From NCBI GenBank assembly GCA_016204695.1, contig JACQKD010000003.1:1-56071 (forward strand): a DNA stretch of 56,071 nt, read 5' to 3'. Made by a program: the position numbers and the translations under genes. Positions 10,295 through 56,071 of the stretch are shown one piece after another (the stretch's first letter is position 1; every line of letters starts with the position of its first letter). The notes beneath the pieces are model-generated. The model did no database searches. It was not told the origin of the DNA and was given only the letters and a program-made list of their open reading frames with translations. This DNA comes from Candidatus Kaiserbacteria bacterium. GTDB taxonomy: Bacteria; Patescibacteriota; Minisyncoccia; Phycocordibacterales; UBA918.

Positions 10295-10520
10295 ACGATG
10301 TACACCCGCATTCTCTCGCTCCTTACAGGAGCAGTACACCGTGCGGATATTTTTCTTCCTTACAGGAACTGTCCACTCATTGGATCTTTTGTTTCGACAT
10401 TCGTCTCACAAAAGCTCTCAACGAGTCTTGCGGCAGTATGCCATACTGCCTCACGCTTCGCTCCAAAACTATCTCGCACGGTCTTCCGAAGCTCCACGTA
10501 TTCGCTTCGGAACCTAGCAT
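10295..10520 (-). repeat. Orphan copy of the mosaic structured repeat family (minus sense), with a nested insert
   Basis: The minus strand reads GAAGACCGTGCGAGATAGTTTTGGAGCGAAGCG...AAAAATATCCGCACGGTGTACTGCTCCTGTAAGGAGCGAG. This is collinear with the Leu-UAG module at 27545-27620. It is interrupted by a block (10369-10432) that recurs at 33285-33345. Confidence 0.8.
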
Positions 10521-11568: not shown

Positions 11569-11650
11569 GCCCGGGTGGCGGAACTGGTATACGCGTACGA
11601 CTCAAAATCGTATGTCGCAAGGCATGTGGGTTCGATTCCCACCCCGGGCA
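11569..11650 (+). tRNA. tRNA-Leu (anticodon CAA), long variable arm, no encoded CCA
   Basis: Hand-folded. Acceptor GCCCGGG/CCCGGGC; anticodon stem TACGA/TCGTA with loop CTCAAAA; variable arm TGTCGCAAGGCAT; T arm GTGGG-TTCGATT-CCCAC. Confidence 0.9.
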
Positions 11651-11879
11651 CAGCAAAAGAGCGGAGTGATTTTGCTGTGCCCGGGAGGAAGCGCGGGGCG
11701 CTTCCGTGTGGGAATCGAAACCCGATTGAGCATTTTCTGTAGCACTTTGTGCGAACAGAAAATCCAATCGGGGTACTGCTCCTGTATACTTCGCTCTCTG
11801 GCACGGCACTCGAAGTTTGTGAAAGCAAAGCTTTCCCAACTTCTCGTTTGTACCAGTAAGGAGCGATCCCACCAGGACA
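11651..11879 (+). repeat. tRNA-Leu(CAA)-anchored pseudo-tRNA module
   Basis: TGTGCCCGGG is the complement of the tRNA 3' end. It is followed by hairpin ggaagcgc-gggg-cgcttcc, GT, GTGGGAATCGAAA, the long hairpin cccgattgag...caatcggg, GTACTG, a CTCCTGTA...TAAGGAG hairpin split by about 70 nt, and CGATCCCACC. Confidence 0.8.
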
Positions 11880-14192: not shown

Positions 14193-14263
14193 GGGCAATT
14201 AGTTTAGTGGTAGAACGTCGGTCTCCAAAACCGATAACGGGGGTTCGATTCCCTCATTGCCCG
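14193..14263 (+). tRNA. tRNA-Trp (anticodon CCA), no encoded CCA
   Basis: Hand-folded. Acceptor GGGCAAT/ATTGCCC; anticodon stem TCGGT/ACCGA with loop CTCCAAA; T arm GGGGG-TTCGATT-CCCTC. Confidence 0.9.
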
Positions 14264-14267
14264 CAAA

Positions 14268-14309: not shown

Positions 14310-14445
14310 CGATGGCGTGGGAAGATCGAAAAGCGGAAAAAACAGTCTGGGGGACTGTTTTCGAGCTGGGGTCGCAAGCATTTAGTTTTTGCGAATACTT
14401 GGAGCAAAAACTAAATGGCTCGTGACCGATTCCCTCATTGCCCGC
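14310..14445 (+). repeat. tRNA-Trp-anchored module (type with GGAAAAAA-hairpin core)
   Basis: It reads GTGGGAAGATCGAAAAGCGGAAAAAACAGTCTGGGGGACTGTTTTCGAG...GGCTCGTGACCGATTCCCTCATTGCCCGC. The last 19 nt (14427-14445) are an exact copy of the tRNA-Trp end at 14246-14264. Confidence 0.8.
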
Positions 14446-15058: not shown

Positions 15059-16120
15059 TTATATATTCAATGTCCGAATGCACCGAGCCTGCGCAGAGGA
15101 TCGAGAATCCGCCGTCCACGCACTAAAGGAGCCTTTGTTTTGTTTCAAAAGACATGCAGCTGCGGACGCATTGCAGGTAAAGTTGCTCGCAGCGGCTTCG
15201 CAGGCCCGCCCAAGTTCTTGCCTATCGGGACGCATCGAACCGCCCCGATATGCAGTCGAACAATTTAAATTTCCTGAAATATTATATCCAGCCGCTTGCG
15301 CTGCAGCCGTACAGACCGGAAGATTTAGACTATGACAATCATCAGACAATCCGAGTACAACCTGAAATACACCTCGGGCAGATGTCTCCTTCCCATCGGG
15401 CGTTCGAGGGATGCCCGGGTTGTTTCTACAACGACTTTCCGGGATGGATAAGCATGAAAACGTGCGCGCCTGCGCTTCAGTCAAACTATATCCCCCTTGT
15501 TGTGCCGCCGCCTGGATATTTTGTGGATTGCAGTCCGCCATCTGAAGCGGTGCGTTATTGGGCGCTGATGTCTGACTCACAGGAGTCCCCGTCTGTGAGC
15601 CGGTTCCGGTTGCCGGCGCATCCGACGGCGGTTTGTTCGGCGGCAATTCGACGCATTTGATCTCATTCCAGAATCCAAAGTTATCTTTCATGGCTTTGTA
15701 GAGCTCGCTTCCTTCCCCTTCTTTATTTCCCTGGAACGCCCATTTCATGACCGTATCTATGACGAGCCACCCGGCAAGCGTAATAACGAGGCCGAGAAGT
15801 ACGTTCCAGAACATGCCCTTCGCTTTGGTCACCTGTCCTTCGTTGCCGGCGGCCGTCATCATCAAAAAACCCGCCCATGCGAAGATTGCGACCGCGATAG
15901 ACGAGGCGATAATAACGAGAAAGTTGATAATCCGTTGTCCGAGCTCGACCGCGTGGCAGATCTGACAGACGGGATACGGCATCGTGCCGATCGTCTCCGC
16001 TACGCCACTGCATGGCACCAGAGAACTCTCCGCAAATGAAAAAGCGGGGAGAGCAAAAACGATGCCGATCGCCAGTACTAGAAATGTCCCCCGCATAGAT
16101 ATTGGTATTGCTTCCATCAT
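15059..16120 (-). CDS. Pilin-like two-TM domain (TrbC/VirB2 or T4SS-pilin type) fused to a Cys-rich C-terminal domain with a lytic-transglycosylase-like motif
   Basis: A signal-like MMEAIPISMRGTFLVLAIGIVFALPAFSFA begins the protein. FLVIIASSIAVAIFAWAGFLMMTAAGNEGQVTKAKGMFWNVLLGLVITLAGWLVIDTVM resembles the small pilin-like proteins at 29807-31388. A P/T/S linker follows. The C-terminal IPES...TSARGVFQVVLG recalls the ES...GLMQ motif of SLT domains. Confidence 0.55.
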   Translation of the reverse strand: MMEAIPISMRGTFLVLAIGIVFALPAFSFAESSLVPCSGVAETIGTMPYPVCQICHAVELGQRIINFLVIIASSIAVAIFAWAGFLMMTAAGNEGQVTKAKGMFWNVLLGLVITLAGWLVIDTVMKWAFQGNKEGEGSELYKAMKDNFGFWNEIKCVELPPNKPPSDAPATGTGSQTGTPVSQTSAPNNAPLQMADCNPQNIQAAAQQGGYSLTEAQARTFSCLSIPESRCRNNPGIPRTPDGKETSARGVFQVVLGLSDDCHSLNLPVCTAAAQAAGYNISGNLNCSTAYRGGSMRPDRQELGRACEAAASNFTCNASAAACLLKQNKGSFSAWTADSRSSAQARCIRTLNI

Positions 16121-16246
16121 ACGGATTACTGCCCGCTTGCCAAGCCGGTAATGCACTGTTCGAGTTTTCAACGCAGAGAGACAATGTCTTGCTGTTGATA
16201 AAAACAGGCACACAAAATCGCTCCTCGCACACGAGCCGAGGAGCGA

Positions 16247-16654: not shown

Positions 16655-16734
16655 AGAACTTTTTTGCTATGCGTATCCAGCGTGGAAAACGCATCGCTAT
16701 ACAATACACGCAATAGAAATTGTGGGAACTTCCG

Positions 16735-16920
16735 GGTAGGATTCCACTCTTGCAGGATTAGTACAGGTTTCGTATCGCGCTCGTAAATTAATTGGGCAGG
16801 ATTCGAAACTTACAGTTTCAGTACAGGTTTCGTATCGTACTCGCCTCTGCTTCGCTCCGGCTCCGTGCGATATACTCAACCTCTTCGAATCCTGCACGAA
16901 AGCTTCGCTTTCTCCGGCGC
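16735..16920 (-). repeat. tRNA-Tyr-anchored module plus a decayed partial second copy
   Basis: The minus strand reads TGTGCGCCGGA, gaaagc-gaa-gctttc, GT, GCAGGATTCGAAG, AGGTTGAGTATATCGCACGGAGCCGGAGCGAAGCAGAGGCGAGTACGATACGAAACCTGTACTG, GAAACTGTAAGTTTC, GAATCCTGCCC. 16794-16807 is an exact copy of 16965-16978 in the tRNA. Confidence 0.8.
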
Positions 16921-16959
16921 ACATTTTAAAAACGCCCAGTTTGGGCGTTTTTAAAATGT
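16921..16959 (-). terminator. Perfect 18 bp palindromic hairpin immediately 3' of tRNA-Tyr (bidirectional terminator-like)
   Basis: The structure is acattttaaaaacgccca-gtt-tgggcgtttttaaaatgt. Confidence 0.6.
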
Positions 16960-17042
16960 GCGCCGGGCAGGATTCGAACCTGCGTAGCCCGTAGGGCGAC
17001 AGATTTACAGTCTGTTGCGATTGACCACTCCGCCACCGACGC
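16959..17042 (-). tRNA. tRNA-Tyr (anticodon GTA), long variable arm, no encoded CCA
   Basis: Hand-folded on the minus strand. Acceptor GCGTCGG/CCGGCGC (one G-U pair); anticodon stem ACAGA/TCTGT with loop CTGTAAA; T arm GCAGG-TTCGAAT-CCTGC. Confidence 0.88.
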
Positions 17043-18758: not shown

Positions 18759-21485
18759 TCAGATCACCGCAACCGGTTCTTTTTTCTCAACCTGCGTCTT
18801 GGTTTGTTTTTCGGTCTGCGATGTCGGCATTTTGCGCTTGCGACTACCTTTTTTCTTGACGTCGAAAGTAAACTGGCCGTTTTTCATTCCCACCGAGACC
18901 GCCCCGCCCTGCAACATGCCCTCGCCGACCATCATGCTGGCAACCGGTGTGAGAATCTTCGACTGGATGAGTCGCTTGAGCGGTCGTGCGCCGAACTTGG
19001 GATCGTATCCTTGTGCCGCGAGATATTCGAGCACTTCGTCCGAAACCGTGAGCTCGATTTCCTTGACGCGCAGTCGCTCCCGCACCATTTCCACCTGCAT
19101 CCCGACGATCTTCCTTATCGTTTCCTTGGAAAGAATGTCGAAGACGATCACCTCATCGAGACGATTGAGGAATTCCGGACGGAAATACTGCTTCAACGAT
19201 TCCATCACTTTGTCCTTGGCGTGCGCGTATTGGGTTTCTTCGTCACGCGTCTTCGAGAAGCCGAATTGCGACATGCGGTCGATGTGTTCCGCTCCGATAT
19301 TCGACGTCATGACAATGACGGTATTTTTGAAATTGACCTTGCGGCCTTTCGCATCGGTAAGGTGTCCGGAGTCGAGCACTTGAAGCAGGATATTGAACAC
19401 TTCAGGATGCGCCTTCTCGATCTCGTCAAGAAGAATGACCGCATACGGACGATGCCGCACGAGCTCGGTGATCGCGCCGCCTTCTTCATATCCGACATAT
19501 CCCGGCGGCGAACCGATGATTTTCGAAACCGAGTGTTTTTCCATATATTCGGACATGTCGATGCGTATGAGCGCCCGTTCATCGTCGAACATAAACGCCG
19601 CGAGCGCCCGCGACAGCTCGGTTTTCCCGACACCGGTGGGACCCAAAAAGAGAAACGAACCGATCGGACGATTCGGGTCGGCAATACCTGCGCGCGAGCG
19701 TTTGACCGCGTCCGCAATGAGTGTCACCGCCTTGTCCTGGCCGACGATTCGTTCCCGGAGGTGCTCTTCCATGCGGGCGAGTTTTGAGGCCTCTTCTTCA
19801 AGCATGCGCGCGACCGGTATGCCCGTCCACTGCGATACGACAGCCGCGATGTCTTCTTCCGTCACCTCTTCTTTCAACAGGCGGCGGCCATGCTGGAGCT
19901 TCTTGAGCTTCGCTGTTTTCTGTTCAAGGTCTCGTTCAAGTTTCGGAATGAGCGCATACCGTATCTCGGCCGCGCGCGGATTATCCGCCCTCGCTTCCGC
20001 AGACTCCGCTTCAAGCCGAAGCCCTTCGAGTTCTTTTTTCATGCCTCGCATGCCGTCGAGCGCATCCTTCTCGTTGTTCCATTTGGTTTCGAGTGCGGCT
20101 GTTTTTTCTTTCAGTTCCGCAATTTCGGCGTCGATGTCTTTTATACGCTGTGCGTGTTTCCGTTTGTTGATCTCGGATTCCTCCTCTTTTTTCAACGCCT
20201 CTTTCTCTATTTCGAGCCGGCGAATCTTGCGGTCGGCCTCTTCGAGTTCCGGTGGTTTGTTCTCAAGCGAAATGCGGAGGGCGGAAGCGGCTTCGTCGAT
20301 GAGGTCCACCGCTTTGTCGGGAAGGAAACGATCGGAGATGTACCGCGAAGAGAGATTGACGGCGCTCATGATGGCATCGTCGGTGATGCGTACGCCGTGA
20401 AAGATTTCGTATTTCTCCGCAAGGCCGCGCAAGATGGCGATTGCGTCCTCCTGCGAGGGCTCGTTGACGTAGACCGATTGGAAACGGCGTGTGAGGGCGG
20501 GATCGCGTTCGATGTGCTTTTGATATTCTTTCAACGTCGTTGCGCCGATGACGCGAAGCTCTCCGCGAGCAAGCGCGGGCTTCAGCATGTTGGACGCGTC
20601 CATGGCTCCCTCGGCGCCGCCGGCACCCACGATCGTATGCAATTCATCGATAAAAAGGATGACGTTGCCTTCGGCCTGTTCCACTTCTTTCATAATGGCC
20701 TTGAGGCGGTCTTCGAACTCGCCGCGAAACTTCGTGCCGGCGATCAAAAGACCGAGATCAAGCGAAAGCAATTCTTTCTGCTTCACCGAATCGGGCACCG
20801 CGTTTTGCGCAATGGCGATGGCGAGTCCTTCGGCGACTGCGGTCTTGCCGACACCCGCCTCGCCGATGAGCACCGGATTGTTTTTCGTGCGGCGAGAAAG
20901 TATCTGAATTACGCGCTGGATTTCCGCATCGCGGCCGATCACCGGATCGAGCTTGTTCTCCTGCGCAAGCTTGGTGAGATTTCTGGTGTATTTCGCAAGC
21001 GCGCGGAATTTCTTCGGATGCGTGACATCCTGCACATTCTTTTCGCGCATTTCTTTCAGTGTCGCGAGTACCTGACGCTTGTCGATGCCGGCGCGCTGGA
21101 TGATCTCGACGGCCGGCCCCGGATGCTCAAGTACCGCAAGAAAGAGATGCTCGACGCCGATGTATGAGTCTCCCAAGTCTTGGGCGATGCGTCCCGCATA
21201 TTCGAGAGCCGAGGCAAGATCAGGCGTGAGGTAGAGTTGGTACGAGGGAGAAATAGTCTGGCCGATTTCGGACCCCTCAAGCCCCTCCAGCACCATATCG
21301 GTAAGGACAATAACATCCACATCGATCCGATCGAGAATGGAGATCACGGCCGTCTCTTCTTGCATGACAAGAGCGGCAAAAAGGTGTACGGGGCTGACAT
21401 GATTCTGTCCTCGCTCAATGGCGAGTTCATGCGCCTTACGCACCGCTTCTTTCGCTTTTGAAGTAAAACTTGCAAATGGTGGCAT
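18759..21485 (-). CDS. clpB: ATP-dependent chaperone ClpB
   Basis: The Clp N domain starts [39 protein letters not shown]1 has [10 protein letters not shown], a long coiled-coil M domain follows, and NBD2 has [11 protein letters not shown] trimmed the start to the ATG at 21485. Confidence 0.95.
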
Positions 21486-24752: not shown

Positions 24753-24799
24753 GCGGTATTTGCCCTCCGGGTGTTGTCGTGTAGTATCATGGTGGTTGC

Positions 24800-24871
24800 G
24801 GCCTGGTGGTGAAGAGGTAACACAGGAGTCTGCAAAACTCCCACGCGCGGGTTCGATTCCCGCCCAGGCCT
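24800..24871 (+). tRNA. tRNA-Cys (anticodon GCA), no encoded CCA
   Basis: Hand-folded. Acceptor GGCCTGG/CCAGGCC; anticodon stem GGAGT/ACTCC with loop CTGCAAA; T arm GCGGG-TTCGATT-CCCGC. Confidence 0.9.
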
Positions 24872-25330
24872 CACGAAGTGAACAGAGTGAACGAGTGGGG
24901 CCTGGAGCAAGTGCCCTACGGCACTTGCGTGCGGGAATCGAAGAGGTTGAGTATATCGCGCGGAGCCGGAGCGAAGCAGAGGCGAGCACGATACGAAACC
25001 TGTACTGATCCTGTAAGGATCGATCCCGCCCAGGCCTCAAAGAGAGCGTAGCGAACGTAGAGGATTGGGCGGGAATCGAAAGCCGGAAAAAAGATGCTGG
25101 GAGCATCTTTTTGAGGCGGGGATGAAAAGCAAACTGCTTTGCTTTTCATCCGATTTCGACCGAAGGGAGAAATGCGCCACTGTCGAGCGAAGCGAGGCGG
25201 GCGCAAGGAGGACGAGAGCGCTTAGTATAAATGTGAGCGGAGCGAAACATTTTACTTAGCGACTCGTGACCGATTCCTTACAGAAACCGTATACCTTGCG
25301 AAGCTCCAAGTATTCACTTCTCCCCACAAC
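24872..25330 (+). repeat. tRNA-Cys-anchored cassette: two modules plus an abutting inverted fragment
   Basis: Module 1 (about 24896-25039) ends in cccgcccaggcctca, an exact copy of 24859-24873. Module 2 (about 25066-25273) carries the 190 nt core that is also found at 27141-27329. 25274-25330 reads as a minus-sense fragment of the orphan repeat type. Confidence 0.85.
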
Positions 25331-25377
25331 AAAAAAGACCCTGCCCAGGGTCTTTTTTGTTCAGAGGATACTCAAAA

Positions 25378-26346
25378 TCAATCCTCGATCGCATCAACCG
25401 CATCGTCCGCCTTTTCCTCCGCTTCTTCGGCCTTATCTTCCGCTTCGTCAAAATCATCGTCATCAAACGCATCCTGTGCCTTTTCAAGGAGTTCCTGCGC
25501 GTCGGCGAGAATCTCCTCGGCCTCGTCGACATCTCTGCCGTCGCCATCCGCAGTGTTGACTTCGTCTTCCGCCTCGTCAATGGCATTCTGCGCGCTAGTA
25601 ATCGCTTCTTGTGCTTGATCCTCGTCCTCGTCTTCATCATCGCAATCATCGTCCTCATCGAGAGCGGAACATTCCTCATCCTCATCTTCGTCATCGCATT
25701 CATCAGTATCATCATTGTTGGCGTCCTCCCCATCATCATCCTCATCATCGTCGTCGTTACCCTCGTCCTCATCATCCTCTTCGTCATCGTCGTTTGCTTC
25801 ATCATCGCCATCCTCGTCATCGTCATCTTCCACACATTCCCCGTCTATCTCATGGCGAGCATCGTTTGCAATCTCTTTTGCTTCTTTTGCAAGCTCTTTT
25901 GCTGTGCCATAGTCCGCATCGTCAAACGCATCTTGAGCTTCTGTAAGCTTCGCCTTTGCATCGGCGATGAGACTCTCTGCATCACCGGTATCACGCCCGC
26001 CAATCTCTTCCGCGAGCGCCGTTTCGGCTTTATCTATCTCATTCTGCGCATTCGTGATGGCAGACGATGCGCTCTGCTTACTGCCTTTATTTGTCTCGTT
26101 CGCATTGTCGGCCCTTATCTTGTCCCAATCAACCTGCGGCCGCCACTCTTTCAAAAGCGCGATCAACTGCTCAAGGAGCGCCTCAAGCCGTGCGATTTTT
26201 ACCTCATTGGCCGTCTGCCCTGTCGTCTGCGCCGCGGCAATGCGGGGAAATGCAAAAGGTGCGAGGATGATGCCCGCCCCGAGCATTATCGTCAATAGCG
26301 CTACGACGATACGATTGGTAAAGAAGATTTTAAAACTTTGAATCAT
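25378..26346 (-). CDS. Membrane-anchored or secreted, extremely acidic repeat protein
   Basis: The ATG at 26346 gives MIQSFKIFFTNRIVVALLTIMLGAGIILAPFAFPRIAAA, a signal or anchor. Three helical repeats of the form A.xxLxxAQDAFDDxD(Y/F)xxA follow, surrounding a long Asp/Glu run with interspersed Cys. The opposite-strand 313 aa ORF is its antisense shadow. Confidence 0.6.
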   Translation of the reverse strand: MIQSFKIFFTNRIVVALLTIMLGAGIILAPFAFPRIAAAQTTGQTANEVKIARLEALLEQLIALLKEWRPQVDWDKIRADNANETNKGSKQSASSAITNAQNEIDKAETALAEEIGGRDTGDAESLIADAKAKLTEAQDAFDDADYGTAKELAKEAKEIANDARHEIDGECVEDDDDEDGDDEANDDDEEDDEDEGNDDDDEDDDGEDANNDDTDECDDEDEDEECSALDEDDDCDDEDEDEDQAQEAITSAQNAIDEAEDEVNTADGDGRDVDEAEEILADAQELLEKAQDAFDDDDFDEAEDKAEEAEEKADDAVDAIED

Positions 26347-26399
26347 ATGTTGTTTCTTGTGCGATCTATAATGAATAATCGCTTCCCAATAAACGGGCA

Positions 26400-26494
26400 A
26401 AACGTCCGTTCATTACCACAGTATACTCCGGTACCGCACTCCGACACCCGTCATTTTCCACTTTTTCCGCTTTTCGACTCCCGCGACCTTGAGC
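26400..26494 (-). repeat. Partial module downstream of tRNA-Leu(UAA)
   Basis: The minus strand reads GCGGGAGTCGAAAAGCGGAAAAAGTGG...GTATACTG. This has a T-stem-like 5' strand, TCGAAAAGCGGAAAAA as in the Trp module, and the RTACTG motif. No matching 3' frame was found. Confidence 0.45.
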
Positions 26495-26538
26495 AACATA
26501 AAAAGAGTACGGTTAGAAAACCGTACTCTTTTTATGTT
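26495..26538. terminator. 18 bp hairpin terminator 3' of tRNA-Leu(UAA)
   Basis: The structure is aacataaaaagagtacgg-ttagaaaa-ccgtactctttttatgtt. Confidence 0.7.
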
Positions 26539-26539
26539 G

Positions 26540-26622
26540 TGCCGAGGGTGGGAGTCGAACCCACATGAGCGTGCGCTCCGGGAATTTTAAGTCCCCTACG
26601 TCTACCATTCCGTCACCTCGGC
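26540..26622 (-). tRNA. tRNA-Leu (anticodon TAA), long variable arm, no encoded CCA
   Basis: Hand-folded on the minus strand. Acceptor GCCGAGG/CCTCGGC; anticodon loop CTTAAAA; T arm GTGGG-TTCGACT-CCCAC. Confidence 0.88.
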
Positions 26623-26726
26623 ATGTCCTGACAGATGATAGCAAACTAGGCGGGTAAGCGAAATGCGGCCGTATTTTTCTCTTGTTCTGTACAGTATTGC
26701 ATAGTACACTCTCGAAGAAGCAATAT

Positions 26727-26799
26727 CCGCCTGTAGCTCAGTTGGTAGAGCAGGGGACTCTTAATCCCAAGGTCGAAGGTTCAAATCCTTCCAGGCGGA
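26727..26799 (+). tRNA. tRNA-Lys (anticodon CTT), no encoded CCA
   Basis: Hand-folded. Acceptor CCGCCTG/CAGGCGG; D arm GCTC-AGTTGGTA-GAGC; anticodon loop CTCTTAA; T arm GAAGG-TTCAAAT-CCTTC. Confidence 0.9.
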
Positions 26800-27345
26800 C
26801 TTGGAACGGAGTGGAAAGTCCGCCTGGAGCGTGCGAACTGCTTCGCTCGCGTGGAGGATTTGAAGACCTCGAGTATATTTTTGAAAAGCTCTGCTTTGAA
26901 AAAATACGAAAGGTGTACCGTTCCTGTAAGGAAAGAACCCTTCCAGGCGGACACGGAGCGTAGCGGAGTGTCCGCCTGAGAAAGCGCGGGGCGCTTTCGT
27001 GAAGGGCTCGAAGCCCGATTGAGCATTTTCCGGAGCGTTTGACGCGACGGAAAATGCTCAATCGGGATACTGCTTCTGTAAGAAGCGAGCTCTTCCATGC
27101 GGACTTGAACGAAGTGAAAGGACGGCTGGAAGGGCTCGAAAGCCGGAAAAAAGATGCTGGAGCGTCTTTTGAGGTGGGGATGAAAAGCAAACTGCTTTGC
27201 TTTTCATCCGGTTTCGACCGAAGGGAGAAATGCGCCACTGTCGAGCGAAGCGAGACCGGCGCAAGGAGGCCGAGAGCGCTTAGTGAATGTGAGCGGAGCG
27301 AAACATTTTACTTAGCGACTCGTGACCGAGCCCTTCCATGCGGAC
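26800..27345 (+). repeat. tRNA-Lys-anchored cassette of three tandem modules
   Basis: The modules are at 26818-26952, 26970-27104 and about 27120-27345. Each ends in (c)cttcca(g/t)gcggac, a copy of the tRNA-Lys 3' end. The three inserts belong to three different shared families. Confidence 0.88.
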
Positions 27346-27390
27346 ACGGTCTGCGCAAATGTAACAAAAAAATTCTATAATACCCCCGAT

Positions 27391-27473
27391 GGGCAAGTGG
27401 CGGAATTGGCTATACGCGCCAGTCTTAGGAACTGGTTCCGAAAGGATTGAGGGTTCGAGTCCCTCCTTGCCCA
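27391..27473 (+). tRNA. tRNA-Leu (anticodon TAG), long variable arm, no encoded CCA
   Basis: Hand-folded. Acceptor GGGCAAG/CTTGCCC; anticodon stem CCAGT/ACTGG with loop CTTAGGA; T arm GAGGG-TTCGAGT-CCCTC. Confidence 0.9.
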
Positions 27474-27835
27474 CAGATTTGAACACAGTGAAAAGCTGTG
27501 GGGGAATGAAGCACATCTTTTGCGAAGCAAAAGATGTAGGACTCGAAGACCGTGCGAGATAGTTTGGAGCGCGAAGCGCGAACAAAATATCCACACGGTG
27601 TACTGAACATGTAATGTTCGAGTCCCTCCTTGCCCACAAAATAAGGAGAAAAGGCAAAGCGTTTTCGACTATATTTTGTGAGACAAGAAGGGACGAGAAC
27701 GGCGGAGGCGGTACACAAGACGACGAGCTTGCGAGAAGTGCTTGTCGCCGAGCCGTGACCCGCGGCGCTTATGAGCGAAGTGCAATGAAGCGAATTAGTG
27801 ACCGTCAGGTCGAGTCCTCTCGTCTCCACCAAACC
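27474..27835 (+). repeat. tRNA-Leu(UAG)-anchored cassette (one intact module, one diverged)
   Basis: The module at 27497-27638 ends in a perfect 20 nt copy (27619-27638) of 27456-27475. A second, diverged unit ends ...GTGACCGTCAGGTCGAGTCCTCTCGTCTCCACC. Confidence 0.8.
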
Positions 27836-27881
27836 ACCCCAAATACCCTTCTATTAAGGGCTATTTTAGATGTATCAAAAA

Positions 27882-27909
27882 CTTGACTTTTTATATTTTT
27901 ATGGTACAA
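27882..27909 (+). promoter_or_regulatory. Strong sigma70-like promoter (TTGACT, 16 nt spacer, TGgTACAAT)
   Basis: TTGACT lies at 27882-27887 and an extended -10 TGGTACAAT at 27901-27909, within an AT-rich stretch upstream of the SPFH gene. Confidence 0.55.
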
Positions 27910-30896: not shown

Positions 30897-31388
30897 TTAC
30901 GTAGGTGGCATAAGAGAATGCACGGTGTTGGTAATGATGGTGAGCAGTACTTGCGCCCCGAGTACGATGACCGCCCCGATGATAGTCCAGGTAAAGGCCT
31001 TCGTCGCTTTGGTGATCTGATCGGGCTTGCCTTGGGCGGTGACGTAGAGGAAGCCGGAGTACATGATCATGAACACGACGATCGGAACGGCAAATATGAT
31101 GACAATTTGGAGGATAAGCTTTAGAAGGTCTCCGATGGAGTCGACGGTGAGGGGATTCTTTAATTCAATCCTAGTACCGGGAGTAATTGTAGTACCAGTA
31201 GTACCGGGGGTATTAGTATTCCCCGTAGTCCCCGGAGTGGGAGTGGTCCCAGTAGTTCCGGGAGTAACAGTACTTCCGGTTGTACCTGGAGTTTGTGCGC
31301 TGGATACAAGGGGGAGAACTATCAACATCATGGCCAGAAAAACCAGGAAAATGATGGGGACTGTTCTTTTTTTGACGAGTGTTTTCAT
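30897..31388 (-). CDS. Two-TM pilin-like protein, paralogue 1, with N-terminal PGTTG tandem repeats
   Basis: It has a signal peptide and five tandem copies of an 8 aa PGTTGxTx unit (DNA 31173-31292). Then comes LILQIVIIFAVPIVVFMIMYSGFLYVTAQGKPDQITKATKAFTWTIIGAVIVLGAQVLL. Confidence 0.75.
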   Translation of the reverse strand: MKTLVKKRTVPIIFLVFLAMMLIVLPLVSSAQTPGTTGSTVTPGTTGTTPTPGTTGNTNTPGTTGTTITPGTRIELKNPLTVDSIGDLLKLILQIVIIFAVPIVVFMIMYSGFLYVTAQGKPDQITKATKAFTWTIIGAVIVLGAQVLLTIITNTVHSLMPPT

Positions 31389-33254: not shown

Positions 33255-33420
33255 ATACCTCGACCTCGCCGCTCCCTACAGGAGCTGTCCACTCATTGGA
33301 TCTTTTGTTTCGCTCCGCTCACAAAAGCTCTCAATGAGTCTTGCGAAGCTCCAAGTATTCGCTTCTCACGCAAAGCGGCCGGCGGGTGGTGGACAGGAAA
33401 TTGCAAGGGTCTCGATAAGA
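33255..33420 (-). repeat. Orphan copy of the mosaic repeat family (minus sense)
   Basis: The minus strand reads GAGAAGCGAATACTTGGAGCTTCGCAAGACTCATTGAGAGCTTTTGTGAGCGGAGCGAAACAAAAGATCCAATGAGTGGACAGCTCCTGTAGGGAGC. 33285-33345 matches 10369-10432. Confidence 0.75.
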
Positions 33421-44094: not shown

Positions 44095-44290
44095 CGTCCC
44101 AAAATCTTCATCTGCTTTGTCGCCTTCGTCGCTCGAACCCTACAGGTTCTGTATACCTTGCGGATATTTTCGTTCGCTTCGCTCCGAAACTATCTCGCAA
44201 GGTCTTGCGAAAGCGCCCCGCGCTTTCTCTCCCTCATCGTATTATGTATACGTCTCGAGTTCTCGCTCCTCGGCTTCGCGCATCTGAAGG
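44095..44290 (-). repeat. Orphan complete module of the mosaic repeat family between ftsA and ftsZ (minus sense)
   Basis: The minus strand reads gaaagcgc-gggg-cgctttc, GCAAGA, CCTTGCGAGATAGTTTCGGAGCGAAGCGAACGAAAATATCCGCAAGG, TATACAG, AACCTGTAGGGTT, CGAG. There is no tRNA-matching frame. Confidence 0.75.
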
Positions 44291-55890: not shown

Positions 55891-55963
55891 GGTGCCTATA
55901 GTGTAGCGGTTAGCACTAGAGTTTGTGGAACTCTCAGCTCGGGTTCGAATCCCGGTAGGCACC
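55891..55963 (+). tRNA. tRNA-His (anticodon GTG) with genome-encoded G-1
   Basis: Hand-folded. G-1 plus acceptor GTGCCTA/TAGGCAC and C73; anticodon stem AGAGT/ACTCT with loop TTGTGGA; T arm CCGGG-TTCGAAT-CCCGG. Confidence 0.88.
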
Positions 55964-56071
55964 CAAGAATAACGGAGCAAATGCGGAGCATTTGTGGAGT
56001 ATATTCTTGGAGTGCCTACCGGGATGAGAAAGCCGGAGGCGGTATACAAGACGAGCGGAACGAAGTGGAGC
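55964..56071 (+). repeat. Start of a tRNA-His-anchored module (cut by the window end)
   Basis: GGAGTG is followed by CCTACCGGGA, the complement of tRNA-His TCCCGGTAGG. GCCGGAGGCGGTATACAAGACGAGCGGAACGAAGTGGAGC then matches the diverged unit at about 27700-27745. Confidence 0.6.

Follow-up and report, generated by a model that had tools for sequence, protein, structure and literature searches.

A stretch of 56,071 nucleotides from a Candidatus Kaiserbacteria bacterium (GenBank assembly GCA_016204695.1, contig JACQKD010000003.1, positions 1 to 56,071; hereafter the window) carries, downstream of every one of its tRNA genes, small hairpin-rich modules in which a core is set between an inverted and a direct copy of the 3′ end of the gene that the module follows. 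The feature is real, strongly non-random and widespread. The explanation that we consider best, with a probability of roughly 0.4, is that the modules form a mobile, non-autonomous family of fold-back repeats, which would act in a single-stranded, sense-strand form and duplicate the 3′ end of the target while leaving the host gene intact. A first-pass annotation of the window, made from the sequence alone, had described the modules as pseudo-tRNA cassettes anchored to tRNA genes, and had proposed either a processing or decoy RNA system or a DNA element that copies its target. Its description proved accurate and its interpretation stands in part, with the second proposal a live reading, but its view of the left frame, of the inserts and of the anchoring to tRNAs must be changed.

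An inverted and a direct copy of the gene end frame the modules

Transfer RNA genes were called with ARAGORN and with the Rfam covariance models, and both find exactly eight in the window, confirming the eight genes and the coordinates of the first-pass annotation. The layout of the modules is most simply described with reference to a segment, X, at the 3′ end of the upstream gene. A module consists of the reverse complement of X, interrupted by a hairpin (H1) and by the series AAR-P2-GWACYG, followed by P3 and then by X itself (H1, P1, P2 and P3 denote helices or hairpins, and acc′ or X′ the complement of the acceptor 3′ strand, with or without trailer). H1 interrupts the inverted copy at the junction of acceptor and T-stem, and AAR-P2-GWACYG interrupts it within the complement of the T-loop. 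For most tRNAs X extends from G53 or T54 to C74, and the unit is placed after the intact gene, from which a loop or a terminator separates it. In the commonest variant of P3, GAACATGTAATGTTC, the 3′ arm of the hairpin is itself G53-C56 of X.

The four direct copies reported earlier are exact (27619-27638 = 27456-27475, extendable to 23 nucleotides (nt), for Leu-UAG; 14427-14445 = 14246-14264; 25025-25039 = 24859-24873; 26939-26952 = 26787-26800), as are the two complementary acceptor pairs quoted for Lys module 1 and Cys module 1. The duplicated segment begins at T54 in most tRNA cases. Its right limit varies, with a mode at C74 plus a few nucleotides, and it can exceed 60 nt and include the terminator; the length of the direct repeat ranges from 12 to >60 nt and is often 44 to >60 nt.

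The left frame had been read as the 5′ T-stem of the tRNA followed by TCGAA. It is in fact the reverse complement of the T-loop and the 3′ T-stem, in places with that of the acceptor 3′ strand. A copy of the 5′ T-stem is ruled out, as evident by the presence of AGAGG or TGAGG, and never of the GGAGG of the tRNA. Among the Leu-UAG modules of related genomes, where the GGAGG of the tRNA 5′ T-stem forms a G.U pair with CCTCT, GGAGG occurs in 0 of 15 and the exact Watson-Crick complement AGAGG in 5 of 15. The seven nucleotides that follow the left T-stem strand complement the local T-loop (AATCGAA for TTCGATT, ACTTGAA for TTCAAGT, ATTTGAA for TTCAAAT). For 7 of the 8 tRNAs in the window, an inverted copy of T-loop and 3′ T-stem with at most 2 mismatches in 12 positions lies 52-62 nt downstream on the strand of the gene, against a chance expectation that we estimate at ~0.03 per tRNA; for tRNA-Trp the inverted copy is present with an indel.

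Because the left frame is inverted and includes the T-loop, a continuous helix of 10 base pairs (P1) replaces the T-loop: it comprises the T-stem and five T-loop positions, and no T-loop is left. Beyond H1, many modules continue with the complement of the acceptor 3′ strand, often past the discriminator into the trailer. In 17 of 43 first modules this complement is contiguous over 7 nt or more, with a maximum of 27 nt, and it would be counted in more of them if imperfect pairing were allowed.

The frames differ from their own tRNA at 1.6 of 12 positions and from other tRNAs at 4.0 of 12, so the framing helices generally track the local tRNA, as had been proposed. Lys modules 2 and 3 depart from this rule, since both carry the T-loop variant TTCGAGCCC where the adjacent tRNA-Lys has TTCAAATCC; the closing helix of these modules still pairs internally despite the divergence. 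Frames unlike the adjacent tRNA, which the first-pass annotation took to speak against its own reading, are thus found in part. The direct copies of the same two modules (within 26970-27345) share a G-to-T change (CCATGCGGAC) that is in neither tRNA-Lys, copy 1 nor either pairing partner, which indicates that neighbouring copies homogenise with each other.

Two observations concern the 3′ end of the tRNA genes themselves. Across the window and the related loci L001-L080 introduced below, C directly follows the discriminator in 132 of 133 tRNA genes, whereas CCA is encoded in 10, and C-A-A is the most frequent continuation (64 genes). The genome thus appears to encode position 74 but not the rest of CCA. 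At ~19400-19560 (minus strand) of locus L005, the module after tRNA-Leu(UAA) has a direct copy that terminates in ...GGACACCA and so includes CCA, whereas the gene reads on as ...GGACACAAAC; it is the only case seen of a copy with CCA whose gene is without it.

The cores are conserved and their helices covary

The segments between the frames, originally regarded as inserts drawn from a few families, are indeed shared between loci, but they are conserved structured cores rather than mere inserts. The class-1 core is, as predicted from the aligned sequences, a three-way junction composed of AAR, a variable stem P2, GWACYG and a 5-bp palindrome, P3, with a GTA triloop. Its junction strands are AAR, GWACYG and 0 nt (lengths 3, 6 and 0), and the triloop is invariant. 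The elements listed at first sight as RTACYG (GWACYG is the better consensus), a hairpin with loop CTGTAAG, and CGA plus the copy are all present. The CTGTAAG loop is part of P3, the 5-bp palindrome that closes the GTA triloop; pairing in this palindrome is 97-99%, with covariation at each of the 5 pairs. A role of CTGTAAG as a mimic of an anticodon loop is ruled out by the covariation of positions 32/38 and 33/37 as base pairs.

Covariation was assessed in two alignments, and the helices covary strongly in both, which supports the first-pass annotation. In alignment A1, which holds 28 class-1 modules from the window and related genomes and is the basis of the class-1 covariance model, 85.7% of cells are paired compared with 63.6% in shuffles, none of which reached the observed value; changes on both sides occur in 25 of 30 pairs, and slid controls are 35-49% paired. 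An alignment of 83 sequences to the model, which is fitted to the structure and hence biased towards it, gives 88.3% compared with 60.6% when shuffled, double changes in 29 of 30 pairs and slid controls of 38-49%.

Minimum free energy (MFE) folding of six window modules (four linked to tRNAs, two frameless) recovers P2 and P3 in all of them, and for Lys-1, Cys-1 and Leu-UAG-1 also an acceptor-like stem, H1 and P1. The fold z-scores are -5.0, -5.3 and -5.5 for these three, -2.3 for the Tyr module, and -4.6 and -3.3 for the two frameless copies. The modules are thus real and structured, are framed by helices of the local tRNA, and have cores common to several loci, as first described.

At least two types of core other than class 1 fill the same socket between inverted and direct copies. 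The second type reads ...AGCCGGA-hairpin-GAGGCGGGGTCGNG-hairpin-YNGTGAC, and the third GAACGGCGGAG...GAGCCGYG.... Hairpins with conserved loops and covarying stems also recur as separable bricks (loop CTGGGAG; AGCAAACTGCTTTGCT; CTGCCCTGCGGCAG; GCGCGGGGCGC; loop GAATACYTGGA), for example at 14335-14356, at 25091-25110 and as H1 of L028, L029 and L038; they are used as H1, in class-2 cores and in tRNA trailers. A further recurring motif, GARCGNAGYGA (a GCGAAGC-type mini-hairpin flanked by GA/GAA), provides the apical loop of P2 and of class-2 hairpins and forms the loop between the tRNA end and the inverted copy (for example at 26801-26817, 27476-27495 and 24966-24976). The nested copy at 10356-10454 is inserted in a loop of this type.

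The elements are widespread and follow the sense strand of tRNA genes

Related loci were retrieved with the GyrA protein of the window as query. This search yielded 80 loci (L001-L080), all from Patescibacteria and with 66-84% identity, which represent Parcubacteria, Paceibacteria, Kaiserbacteria, Nomurabacteria and others. L050 and L058 are the same 22-kb gyrA region present twice, inverted, on the 127-kb contig CAXRCZ010000007.1 (98392-120806, and 5911-28325 reversed); this duplication is probably a palindromic mis-assembly.

Among the 130 tRNAs in the window and these loci, 32 have their own 14-nt tail copied with at most one mismatch within 800 nt, mostly 98-195 nt downstream, where we estimate the chance expectation at ~0.02. 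The class-1 covariance model gives 83 matches (E ≤ 1) in 1.36 Mb of sequence. In the 80 matches that were tabulated, 57 lie within 700 nt downstream of a tRNA on the same strand and 23 lie farther away, many of the latter without a tRNA frame. Orientation is strict: within 120 nt 3′ of a tRNA, 43 copies are on the strand of the tRNA and 0 on the opposite strand.

An independent replicate of this result comes from metagenome contigs, which were scanned for one exact J23+P3 sequence. At least 120 contigs carry it, and among the 133 matches listed, 96 have a same-strand tRNA ending at most 300 nt upstream. Another 16 are too near a contig end to judge, and many of the other 21 are later tandem units or follow a tRNA-like 3′ end that ARAGORN does not call. 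The tRNAs of the matches listed represent at least 22 anticodons. For the 96 tRNA-linked matches listed, the next 20 nt repeat the tRNA from its own T54 onward (at most 2 mismatches) in 67, and an inverted copy is present in 64. Absence of the architecture from relatives had been named as evidence against the proposal; the architecture is seen both in the related loci and on these contigs. We conclude that the elements are endemic to Parcubacteria/Paceibacteria and are small (~80-230 nt), protein-less, hairpin-rich interspersed repeats. Viral contigs (IMG/VR) gave 0 matches to the exact J23+P3 pattern; a looser pattern gave at least 119 loci, and the model found one weak match (23.8 bits) in the 80 of them that were scanned. 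These near-empty scans indicate that the elements are not phage-borne in IMG/VR.

The match between the direct copy and so many genes raises the prospect that the modules are guide RNAs of an RNA-guided nuclease or transposase, with the core as scaffold (like a TnpB/IscB omega-RNA or a homing CRISPR RNA, crRNA) and the 16-22 nt after P3 as guide. A scaffold hairpin followed by the guide is the geometry of TnpB and Cas12 guides, and here a scaffold would end in a hairpin followed by ~20 nt identical to the adjoining tRNA gene, with frames that follow the 22 or more tRNAs noted above. However, the would-be guide is fully paired to the inverted arm of the module, and the intact target gene adjoins it uncut. 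The direct repeat is often much longer than a guide, no TnpB, IscB or Cas gene is present in the window, and no match to the omega-RNA or HEARO-type families of Rfam was found. We consider this explanation quite improbable.

Copies away from tRNA genes

The system is not in principle anchored to tRNAs, contrary to what had been thought, since the same layout is found at the stop codon of a protein gene and since frameless copies exist. The protein gene is a conserved one just upstream of gyrA (...MEGEIVVLKA*), and in L003, L005 and L042 the last ~20 nt of its open reading frame (ORF), which include the stop codon, are succeeded in turn by a loop, the complement of these ~20 nt, a class-1 core and a second copy of the ORF end. 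The inverted copy follows a synonymous change between L003 and L005 (ATT/AAT compared with ATC/GAT), and L005 has two identical tandem units at this site. In many species, the frame of a class-2 core behind tRNA-Lys consists of the last three nucleotides of the tRNA and the trailer, not of the T-loop.

The frameless form consists of GTGA, a closed hairpin H1, GCAAG, P2, GNACNG and P3, which amounts to a permuted junction whose closing helix is capped by a loop. Where an upstream ORF can be identified, 14 of 19 frameless copies are co-oriented with it. In three other places (L004 ~1090-1130, L042 ~480-520 and L064 ~700-740, strand-specific), the 3′ end of a conserved ORF (...KLK*) lies in a perfect palindrome with the stop codon at its centre (e.g. 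AAAACTTAAGTAAGTTTT), upstream of elements of classes 1 and 2. Hairpins formed from gene ends thus seem to be common in these genomes.

This range of targets bears on another explanation, that the modules are attL/attR scars left where an integrase has repeatedly inserted very small elements at tRNA 3′ ends. An intact tRNA with a flanking repeat of its 3′ end is the classical signature of integration at tRNA genes, and the direct repeats that flank the inserts here (32 of 130 tRNAs, mostly from T54), the intact tRNAs and the tandem arrays agree with it. The same cores, however, serve at least 22 tRNAs, a protein-gene end and tRNA trailers, for which one integrase/attP pair is insufficient, and this multiplicity of targets effectively refutes the explanation. 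In addition, the insert measures only 80-230 nt, no integrase is present in the window, the DNA to the left of the repeat lacks a core-type half-site, att recombination makes no use of an inverted copy, and the repeat length varies from 12 to >60 nt.

Cores and copies turn over rapidly

Frames and cores behave differently. In L040, a comparison of the Leu-UAG and Lys-CUU modules shows differences at 4 of 12 positions in the frames and at 1 of ~70 in the cores, and in the window a repeat search gives 96% identity over 118 nt between the cores of Cys module 2 and Lys module 3. For 21 of 83 copies the core has its closest relative within the same genome, and for 19 of 83 the closest relative stands behind the same type of tRNA in another genome, so both intragenomic spread (or concerted evolution) and vertical inheritance occur. 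Between species, the same tRNA can be followed by differing cores or by none.

Nested, tandem, truncated and chimeric copies are all present and, like the behaviour of the cores, are signs of mobile or recombining DNA. The GTA loop of P3 is a repeated breakpoint: it has received a 70-nt insertion in the Leu-CAA module of the window and in L013, and the second tandem units of L033 and L059 end at it. Tandem arrays of identical units occur in L005, L028, L059, L226 and L289, the last with at least 3 identical units of ~171 nt, and L028 includes a chimeric unit that ends in the tail of another tRNA. No autonomous or split copies with an internal ORF were found; 60 of the 66 strict J23+P3 sites belong to model matches of the usual kind, and the remainder are nested copies or due to chance. 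Targeting of a replication strand (the lagging template) is unlikely, since the Trp (plus) and Tyr (minus) modules are only 3 kb apart and each stands after its own tRNA; orientation follows the gene, not the replichore.

A single-stranded sense form: RNA or DNA

Pairing statistics suggest that the module acts as a single-stranded structure of the sense strand. The model alignment contains 103 G.T cells and 52 A.C cells (p = 5e-5), although this alignment of related sequences is fitted to the structure and leans to G.U; within it, P2a and P3 contribute 26 and 6. A small hand-made alignment gives 37 and 23, and the excess is significant in the model alignment alone. The stems are almost purely Watson-Crick, as in P3, with 374 Watson-Crick, 10 G.T and 3 A.C cells.

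Such a structure could be an RNA. In the main rival explanation, which is close to the idea of the first-pass annotation, the modules would be host-beneficial cis-acting RNAs, read through from the upstream gene and folded into a tRNA-like minihelix with an acceptor-like stem, with H1 in place of the D and anticodon arms, and with the T-stem extended into the three-way junction. They might serve as a punctuation or processing signal (for RNase P on the 5′ side, or for RNase Z or the CCA-adding enzyme at C74), as a 3′-end protector, or as a decoy or antisense RNA against the 3′ half of the tRNA that is masked by its own copy. This explanation would account for the orientation of 43 to 0 with the tRNA, the co-orientation of most frameless copies with the upstream ORF, the strong covariation, the conserved junction nucleotides and the excess of G.U over A.C. 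It agrees also with the MFE folds that give the architecture (z of -5.0 to -5.5 for the three framed plus-strand modules and of -2.3 to -4.6 for the Tyr and frameless ones), with direct copies that usually stop at the tRNA end (mode T54 to C74), with the internal pairing kept by Lys modules 2 and 3, and with the class-2 element behind tRNA-Lys in many species.

Nevertheless, we consider it somewhat unlikely. A terminator-like hairpin with a T-run precedes 31 of 43 first modules, which argues against efficient co-transcription with the tRNA; one also follows 29 of 43, and each tandem unit contains one. RNase P, RNase Z, TruB and other T-arm enzymes read the geometry of acceptor and T-arm (12 bp plus T-loop), and this geometry is not kept in the modules, where five extra base pairs replace the T-loop and the pairing of the 5′ strand passes the discriminator. 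The rapid turnover, with nested, truncated, chimeric and tandem copies and unrelated cores in one socket, and the occurrence of the layout at the stop codon of a protein gene likewise fit a host function poorly. Finally, the apical loops are GNA triloops and GCGAAGC-type mini-hairpins, not the GNRA or UNCG loops of stable RNA hairpins, whereas terminators in the same loci use GNRA or UUCG. GNA and GCGAAGC-type loops are an exceptionally stable mini-hairpin motif of DNA, and the almost exclusive Watson-Crick pairing of the stems also points to DNA hairpins. We therefore somewhat favour a hairpin-based process on the sense strand at the level of DNA over one at the level of RNA.

RNA could also be the vehicle of movement. 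In a retro- or ribozyme-type element, an RNA with the three-way junction as its active form would pair its 5′ arm, after the fashion of a primer-binding site or an intron guide sequence, with the 3′-terminal strand of a tRNA or mRNA, and the RNA would then be copied into DNA beside the gene concerned. Like the primer-binding site of a retrovirus, the inverted arm can pair with a tRNA 3′ end, here with roughly the last 20 nt; the direct copy from T54 to C74 approximates a 3′ tRNA fragment; and the copy with CCA in L005, where the gene has CAAA, is what such a route could leave. Both open (P1-closed) and hairpin-capped permuted junction forms exist, small ribozymes also occur in permuted forms, and the nested copies resemble twintrons. 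We nonetheless regard this explanation as unlikely. Only one CCA case is seen and other copies end in the genomic C-A-A, the complementarity enters the genomic trailer and not CCA, and terminators stand upstream of most modules. The window has no reverse transcriptase, no Rfam ribozyme or intron family matches, and the junction lengths of 3, 6 and 0 are unlike those of the hammerhead core.

A tentative mechanism for target copying

If the modules are a mobile family of fold-back repeats, they would be selfish, at most semi-domesticated, DNA that is moved in trans by an enzyme encoded elsewhere. The trans-acting activity would recognise hairpin loops, and its entry points may be hairpins of the sense strand, namely the tRNA T-arm, terminators, and the P2 and P3 loops of the elements. 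Transcription of highly expressed genes could expose this strand. If insertion is coupled to fold-back or gap-fill synthesis, it would leave the core between inverted and direct copies of the target, so that the host gene would never be disrupted. The flanking direct repeats could subsequently permit both tandem amplification and clean loss.

Other routes to the same layout were considered and set aside. Campbell integration of a circle carrying X does not explain the many targets. Origin-dependent inverted-repeat amplification (ODIRA) or snap-back switching at terminator and T-arm predicts an inverted T-arm without a core or a direct T-loop copy. If a core were inserted into the T-loop of a duplicated tRNA, the left junction would differ from the one observed, and hairpin opening of the P-nucleotide type gives a contiguous palindrome without a core.

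Several points weigh against a mobile repeat family. Pfam searches of the window found no transposase, HUH nuclease, integrase or reverse transcriptase, and no protein partner was identified. We know of no transposition chemistry that gives an inverted and a direct target copy around a core. H1 interrupts the inverted arm at a fixed place, the junction of acceptor and T-stem, and so looks designed rather than copied. The strict co-orientation, the G.T bias and the conserved junction nucleotides would be equally expected of a functional RNA. An all-against-all comparison of tRNA flanks for empty and filled pairs met species too divergent (65-75% identity) to set boundaries, and a search for strain polymorphism through contigs encoding ParB found the same ParB on only one other contig (2.1 kb), which is identical to the window. 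Because the junctions do not derive from any standard model, our confidence in the mobile family is limited to the value given at the outset.

Features of the window

The window encodes housekeeping genes only (parB, gyrA, topA, ftsA/Z, clpB, the ATP synthase operon, miaA, relA/spoT and others). tRNA-Leu(CAA) (11569-11651, plus strand; 59.9 bits with Rfam) is followed by a module at 11670-11879 (plus), in which X′, the complement of acceptor 3′ strand and trailer, occupies 11670-11685, H1 11687-11705 and the inverted T-loop and 3′ T-stem (GTGGGAATCGAA) 11708-11719. The class-1 core of this module, weakly matched by the model at 11708-11798, has ~70 nt inserted in the P3 GTA loop after 11786; the 3′ arm of P3 and the direct copy lie at 11855-11879. 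Behind tRNA-Trp(CCA) (14193-14264, plus), the module at 14317-14445 (plus) has a class-2 core (...GCTGGGGTCGCAAG...CTCGTGAC), a left frame GTGGGAAGATCGAA at 14317-14330 and an exact direct copy of part of the T-loop, the T-stem and the acceptor at 14427-14445.

On the minus strand, tRNA-Tyr(GUA) (16958-17042) precedes a class-1 module at 16794-16938 (68.4 bits with the model). Its X′ (16914-16938) forms a 25-nt perfect palindrome arm with the tRNA end and trailer, and H1 (16898-16912), the inverted T-loop and T-stem (16884-16895), J23+P3 (16806-16824) and the direct copy (16794-16805) follow. A decayed partial second module, detected by the repeat search at 16732-16778 (minus), retains the P2 3′ strand, GTACTA, a degenerate P3 and a degenerate copy.

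tRNA-Cys(GCA) (24800-24872, plus) has two modules. The first, at 24899-25039 (plus; class 1, 59.9 bits), comprises acc′ (24899-24905), H1 (24907-24928), the inverted T-loop and T-stem (24931-24942), P2 (24943-25001), GTACTG (25002-25007), P3 (25008-25020) and the direct copy (25021-25039). The second, at 25067-25277 (plus), has a large class-2-type core with a left frame GGGCGGGAATCGAA at 25067-25080, and its right end, CTCGTGACCGATTCC at 25263-25277, is cut off by a converging class-1 fragment on the minus strand (25274-25320). This fragment (H1, GCAAG, P2 deleted, ATACGG, P3) lies downstream of a gene for an acidic protein. In the region of collision (25263-25320), CGATTCC is shared by both elements, as the start of the T-loop copy on the plus strand and as the complement of the P3 arm plus TCG on the minus strand.

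tRNA-Leu(UAA) (26539-26622, minus) is followed by a fragment at 26430-26484 (minus), with the inverted T-loop and T-stem GCGGGAGTCGAA at 26473-26484 and then the start of a class-2-like core (AAAGCGGAAAAAG...), without a direct copy. Three modules stand behind tRNA-Lys(CUU) (26727-26800, plus), all on the plus strand. Module 1 (26818-26952; class 1, 60.7 bits) comprises acc′ (26818-26828), H1 (26829-26850), the inverted T-loop and T-stem (26853-26864), J23+P3 (26915-26933) and the direct copy (26934-26952). Module 2 (26970-27104; class 1, 66.2 bits), with the T-loop variant foreign to the adjacent tRNA, comprises acc′ (26970-26979), H1 (26980-26998), the left frame (27001-27012), J23+P3 (27067-27085) and the copy (27086-27104). 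Module 3 (27120-27345) has a class-2-type core between a continuous inverted copy (27120-27140) and CTCGTGAC plus the copy (27319-27345).

tRNA-Leu(UAG) (27391-27474, plus) has a class-1 module at 27496-27638 (plus; 80.2 bits), with acc′ at 27496-27502, H1 at 27512-27537, the left frame at 27538-27547, J23+P3 at 27600-27618 and an exact 23-nt direct copy at 27616-27638. Its second module, at 27690-27829 (plus), has the third core type (GAACGGCGGAG...GAGCCGTGAC...) in decayed frames and is 88% identical over 34 nt to the His module in the repeat search. The latter, at 55966-56071 (plus) behind tRNA-His(GUG) (55892-55964, plus), is cut by the end of the window; a trailer hairpin, acc′ and the left frame CCGGGATGAGAA (56019-56030) precede the beginning of its core, which is also of the third type.

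The window contains frameless class-1 copies at three sites, all on the minus strand. One at 10319-10510 (37.4 and 17.8 bits) lies just downstream of parB on the same strand, and its P2 apical loop harbours a second complete class-1 copy (10356-10454). Another, at 33272-33369 (40.8 bits), lies 71 nt downstream of gyrA on the same strand and has the layout GTGAGAAG-H1-GCAAG-P2-GGACAG-P3. The third, at 44136-44229 (49.9 bits), lies between ftsA and ftsZ, antisense to both.

Three ORFs on the minus strand were recorded in addition. The ORF at 25378-26400, between the Cys and Leu-UAA/Lys module clusters, encodes 340 amino acids; its middle is extremely rich in Asp/Glu and internally repetitive, with a 46-nt repeat in 16 overlapping copies, and its C-terminus weakly matches DUF4398. 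Those at 15059-16213 and 30897-31388 match the type IV secretion pilin family PF18895, one of them weakly (24.0 bits compared with a cut-off of 26.6).

Implications

The modules may represent a previously unrecognised class of genetic element, a reading that we hold at somewhat less than even odds. A protein-less core would reprogram itself to any gene end by making its closing helix out of inverted and direct copies of the target 3′ terminus, with the T-arm (G53/T54) as universal entry point; this would imply either a new chemistry of target-copying insertion, by a hairpin-specific enzyme or templated by RNA, or a new family of RNAs that mimic tRNA tails and act on tRNA 3′ ends in the Candidate Phyla Radiation (CPR). 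If the elements are mobile, their insertion mechanism copies ~20-60 nt of the target both ways and never disrupts the host gene, which is not known of any transposon, intron or integrative element. Behind it would stand an enzyme or ribozyme able to recognise hairpin loops, the tRNA T-arm among them; this would be a new, tool-like activity. Should the elements instead be functional RNAs, Parcubacteria would have an RNA system linked to tRNAs throughout the lineage, and little is known of RNA processing in these organisms. On either reading, the elements fill a noticeable share of the scarce intergenic space in genomes of roughly 1 Mb, and their tandem and inverted repeats can break assemblies and drive rearrangements, as in the chimeric unit of L028. 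They are invisible to current annotation, and the class-1 covariance model provides a direct handle for finding them.

Comparison with known elements and RNA families

We did not find the combination of a conserved core, a socket of inverted and direct gene-end copies and strict gene-sense orientation in any known element or RNA family. With Rfam 15, the whole window yields only the 8 tRNAs at the gathering threshold, and the interval 24780-27900 at E ≤ 10 yields noise only (e.g. RT-3 at 13 bits compared with a threshold of 40.5); no module is matched, in agreement with the original impression that no known RNA family is involved. No description of such elements was found in the literature, where the one candidate paper concerns an unrelated motif of Methanopyrus.

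The modules are neither tRNAs nor tRNA pseudogenes, as evident by the fact that none is called by ARAGORN or by the Rfam tRNA model. Their likeness to a tRNA is that of a molecule in which one hairpin replaces the D and anticodon arms, and a 10-bp helix and three-way junction replace the T-loop. Plant mitochondrial t-elements and mascRNA share with them an acceptor-like stem ending at a discriminator-like position, but the modules have neither T-loop nor T-arm geometry and pair past the discriminator, which excludes a processing signal of this kind.

As in the P1/P10 pairing of group I introns, an internal strand can pair with upstream and downstream exon-like copies. The modules, in contrast, have no catalytic core, the two "exons" are identical to each other, and the gene upstream is complete in itself; with cores of 60-200 nt and no Rfam intron match, group I and group II introns are excluded. 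The hammerhead has a conserved core such as CUGANGA / GAA / H around its three-way junction, with which the order and lengths of AAR, GWACYG and 0 nt do not fit, and no small self-cleaving ribozyme is matched in Rfam. A retron is excluded as well: a closing helix is present, but there is no reverse transcriptase in the window and there are dozens of copies per genome region. Tandem units that are identical throughout (L289, L059), and window modules with differing cores and decaying frames, exclude a CRISPR array.

The omega-RNA of IS200/IS605 TnpB and the homing crRNAs of type V-K systems resemble the modules in that a scaffold precedes ~16-20 nt matching the flanking target, and type V-K CRISPR-associated transposons home downstream of tRNA genes. 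The modules differ in having no nuclease or transposon, a guide-like copy paired to its own anti-guide, an intact target and a scaffold unlike any Rfam family; both relationships are rejected because the window lacks TnpB, IscB and Cas genes and the guide-like copy is fully paired. Integrative elements at tRNA and tmRNA genes likewise have a direct repeat from the T-loop to the end, leave a functional tRNA and form arrays by repeated events. The insert of a module, however, is 100 times smaller and has no integrase in the window, and in place of one or a few targets there are at least 22 anticodons and a protein-gene end, with an extra inverted copy.

Miniature inverted-repeat transposable elements (MITEs), including Correia and the Rickettsia palindromic elements, are small, non-coding, multi-copy and non-autonomous, have inverted-repeat ends whose folding gives a long hairpin, and occur nested or in tandem, all of which applies to the modules. 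Their inverted repeats are element-specific and identical and their target duplications short and fixed, whereas the arms of the modules are locus-specific ends of the local host gene (1.6 compared with 4.0 mismatches in 12), the repeats span 12 to >60 nt, and orientation to the gene is fixed; the modules are thus not MITEs.

Repetitive extragenic palindromic (REP) sequences, with the related BIME and REPIN (whose RAYT protein is a Y1 HUH transposase), are short, protein-less hairpin repeats in many copies, mostly after genes. REP sequences differ in being uniform, in not copying the adjoining gene, in occurring in both orientations where the modules show 43 to 0, and in having no known three-way junction. 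Both are mosaics of a few hairpin types with a conserved motif 5′ of the hairpin, GTAG in REP and GWACYG before P3 here. REP sequences probably function in single-stranded hairpin form, with a single enzyme that mobilises them in trans, and it is in this manner that we propose the modules may move.

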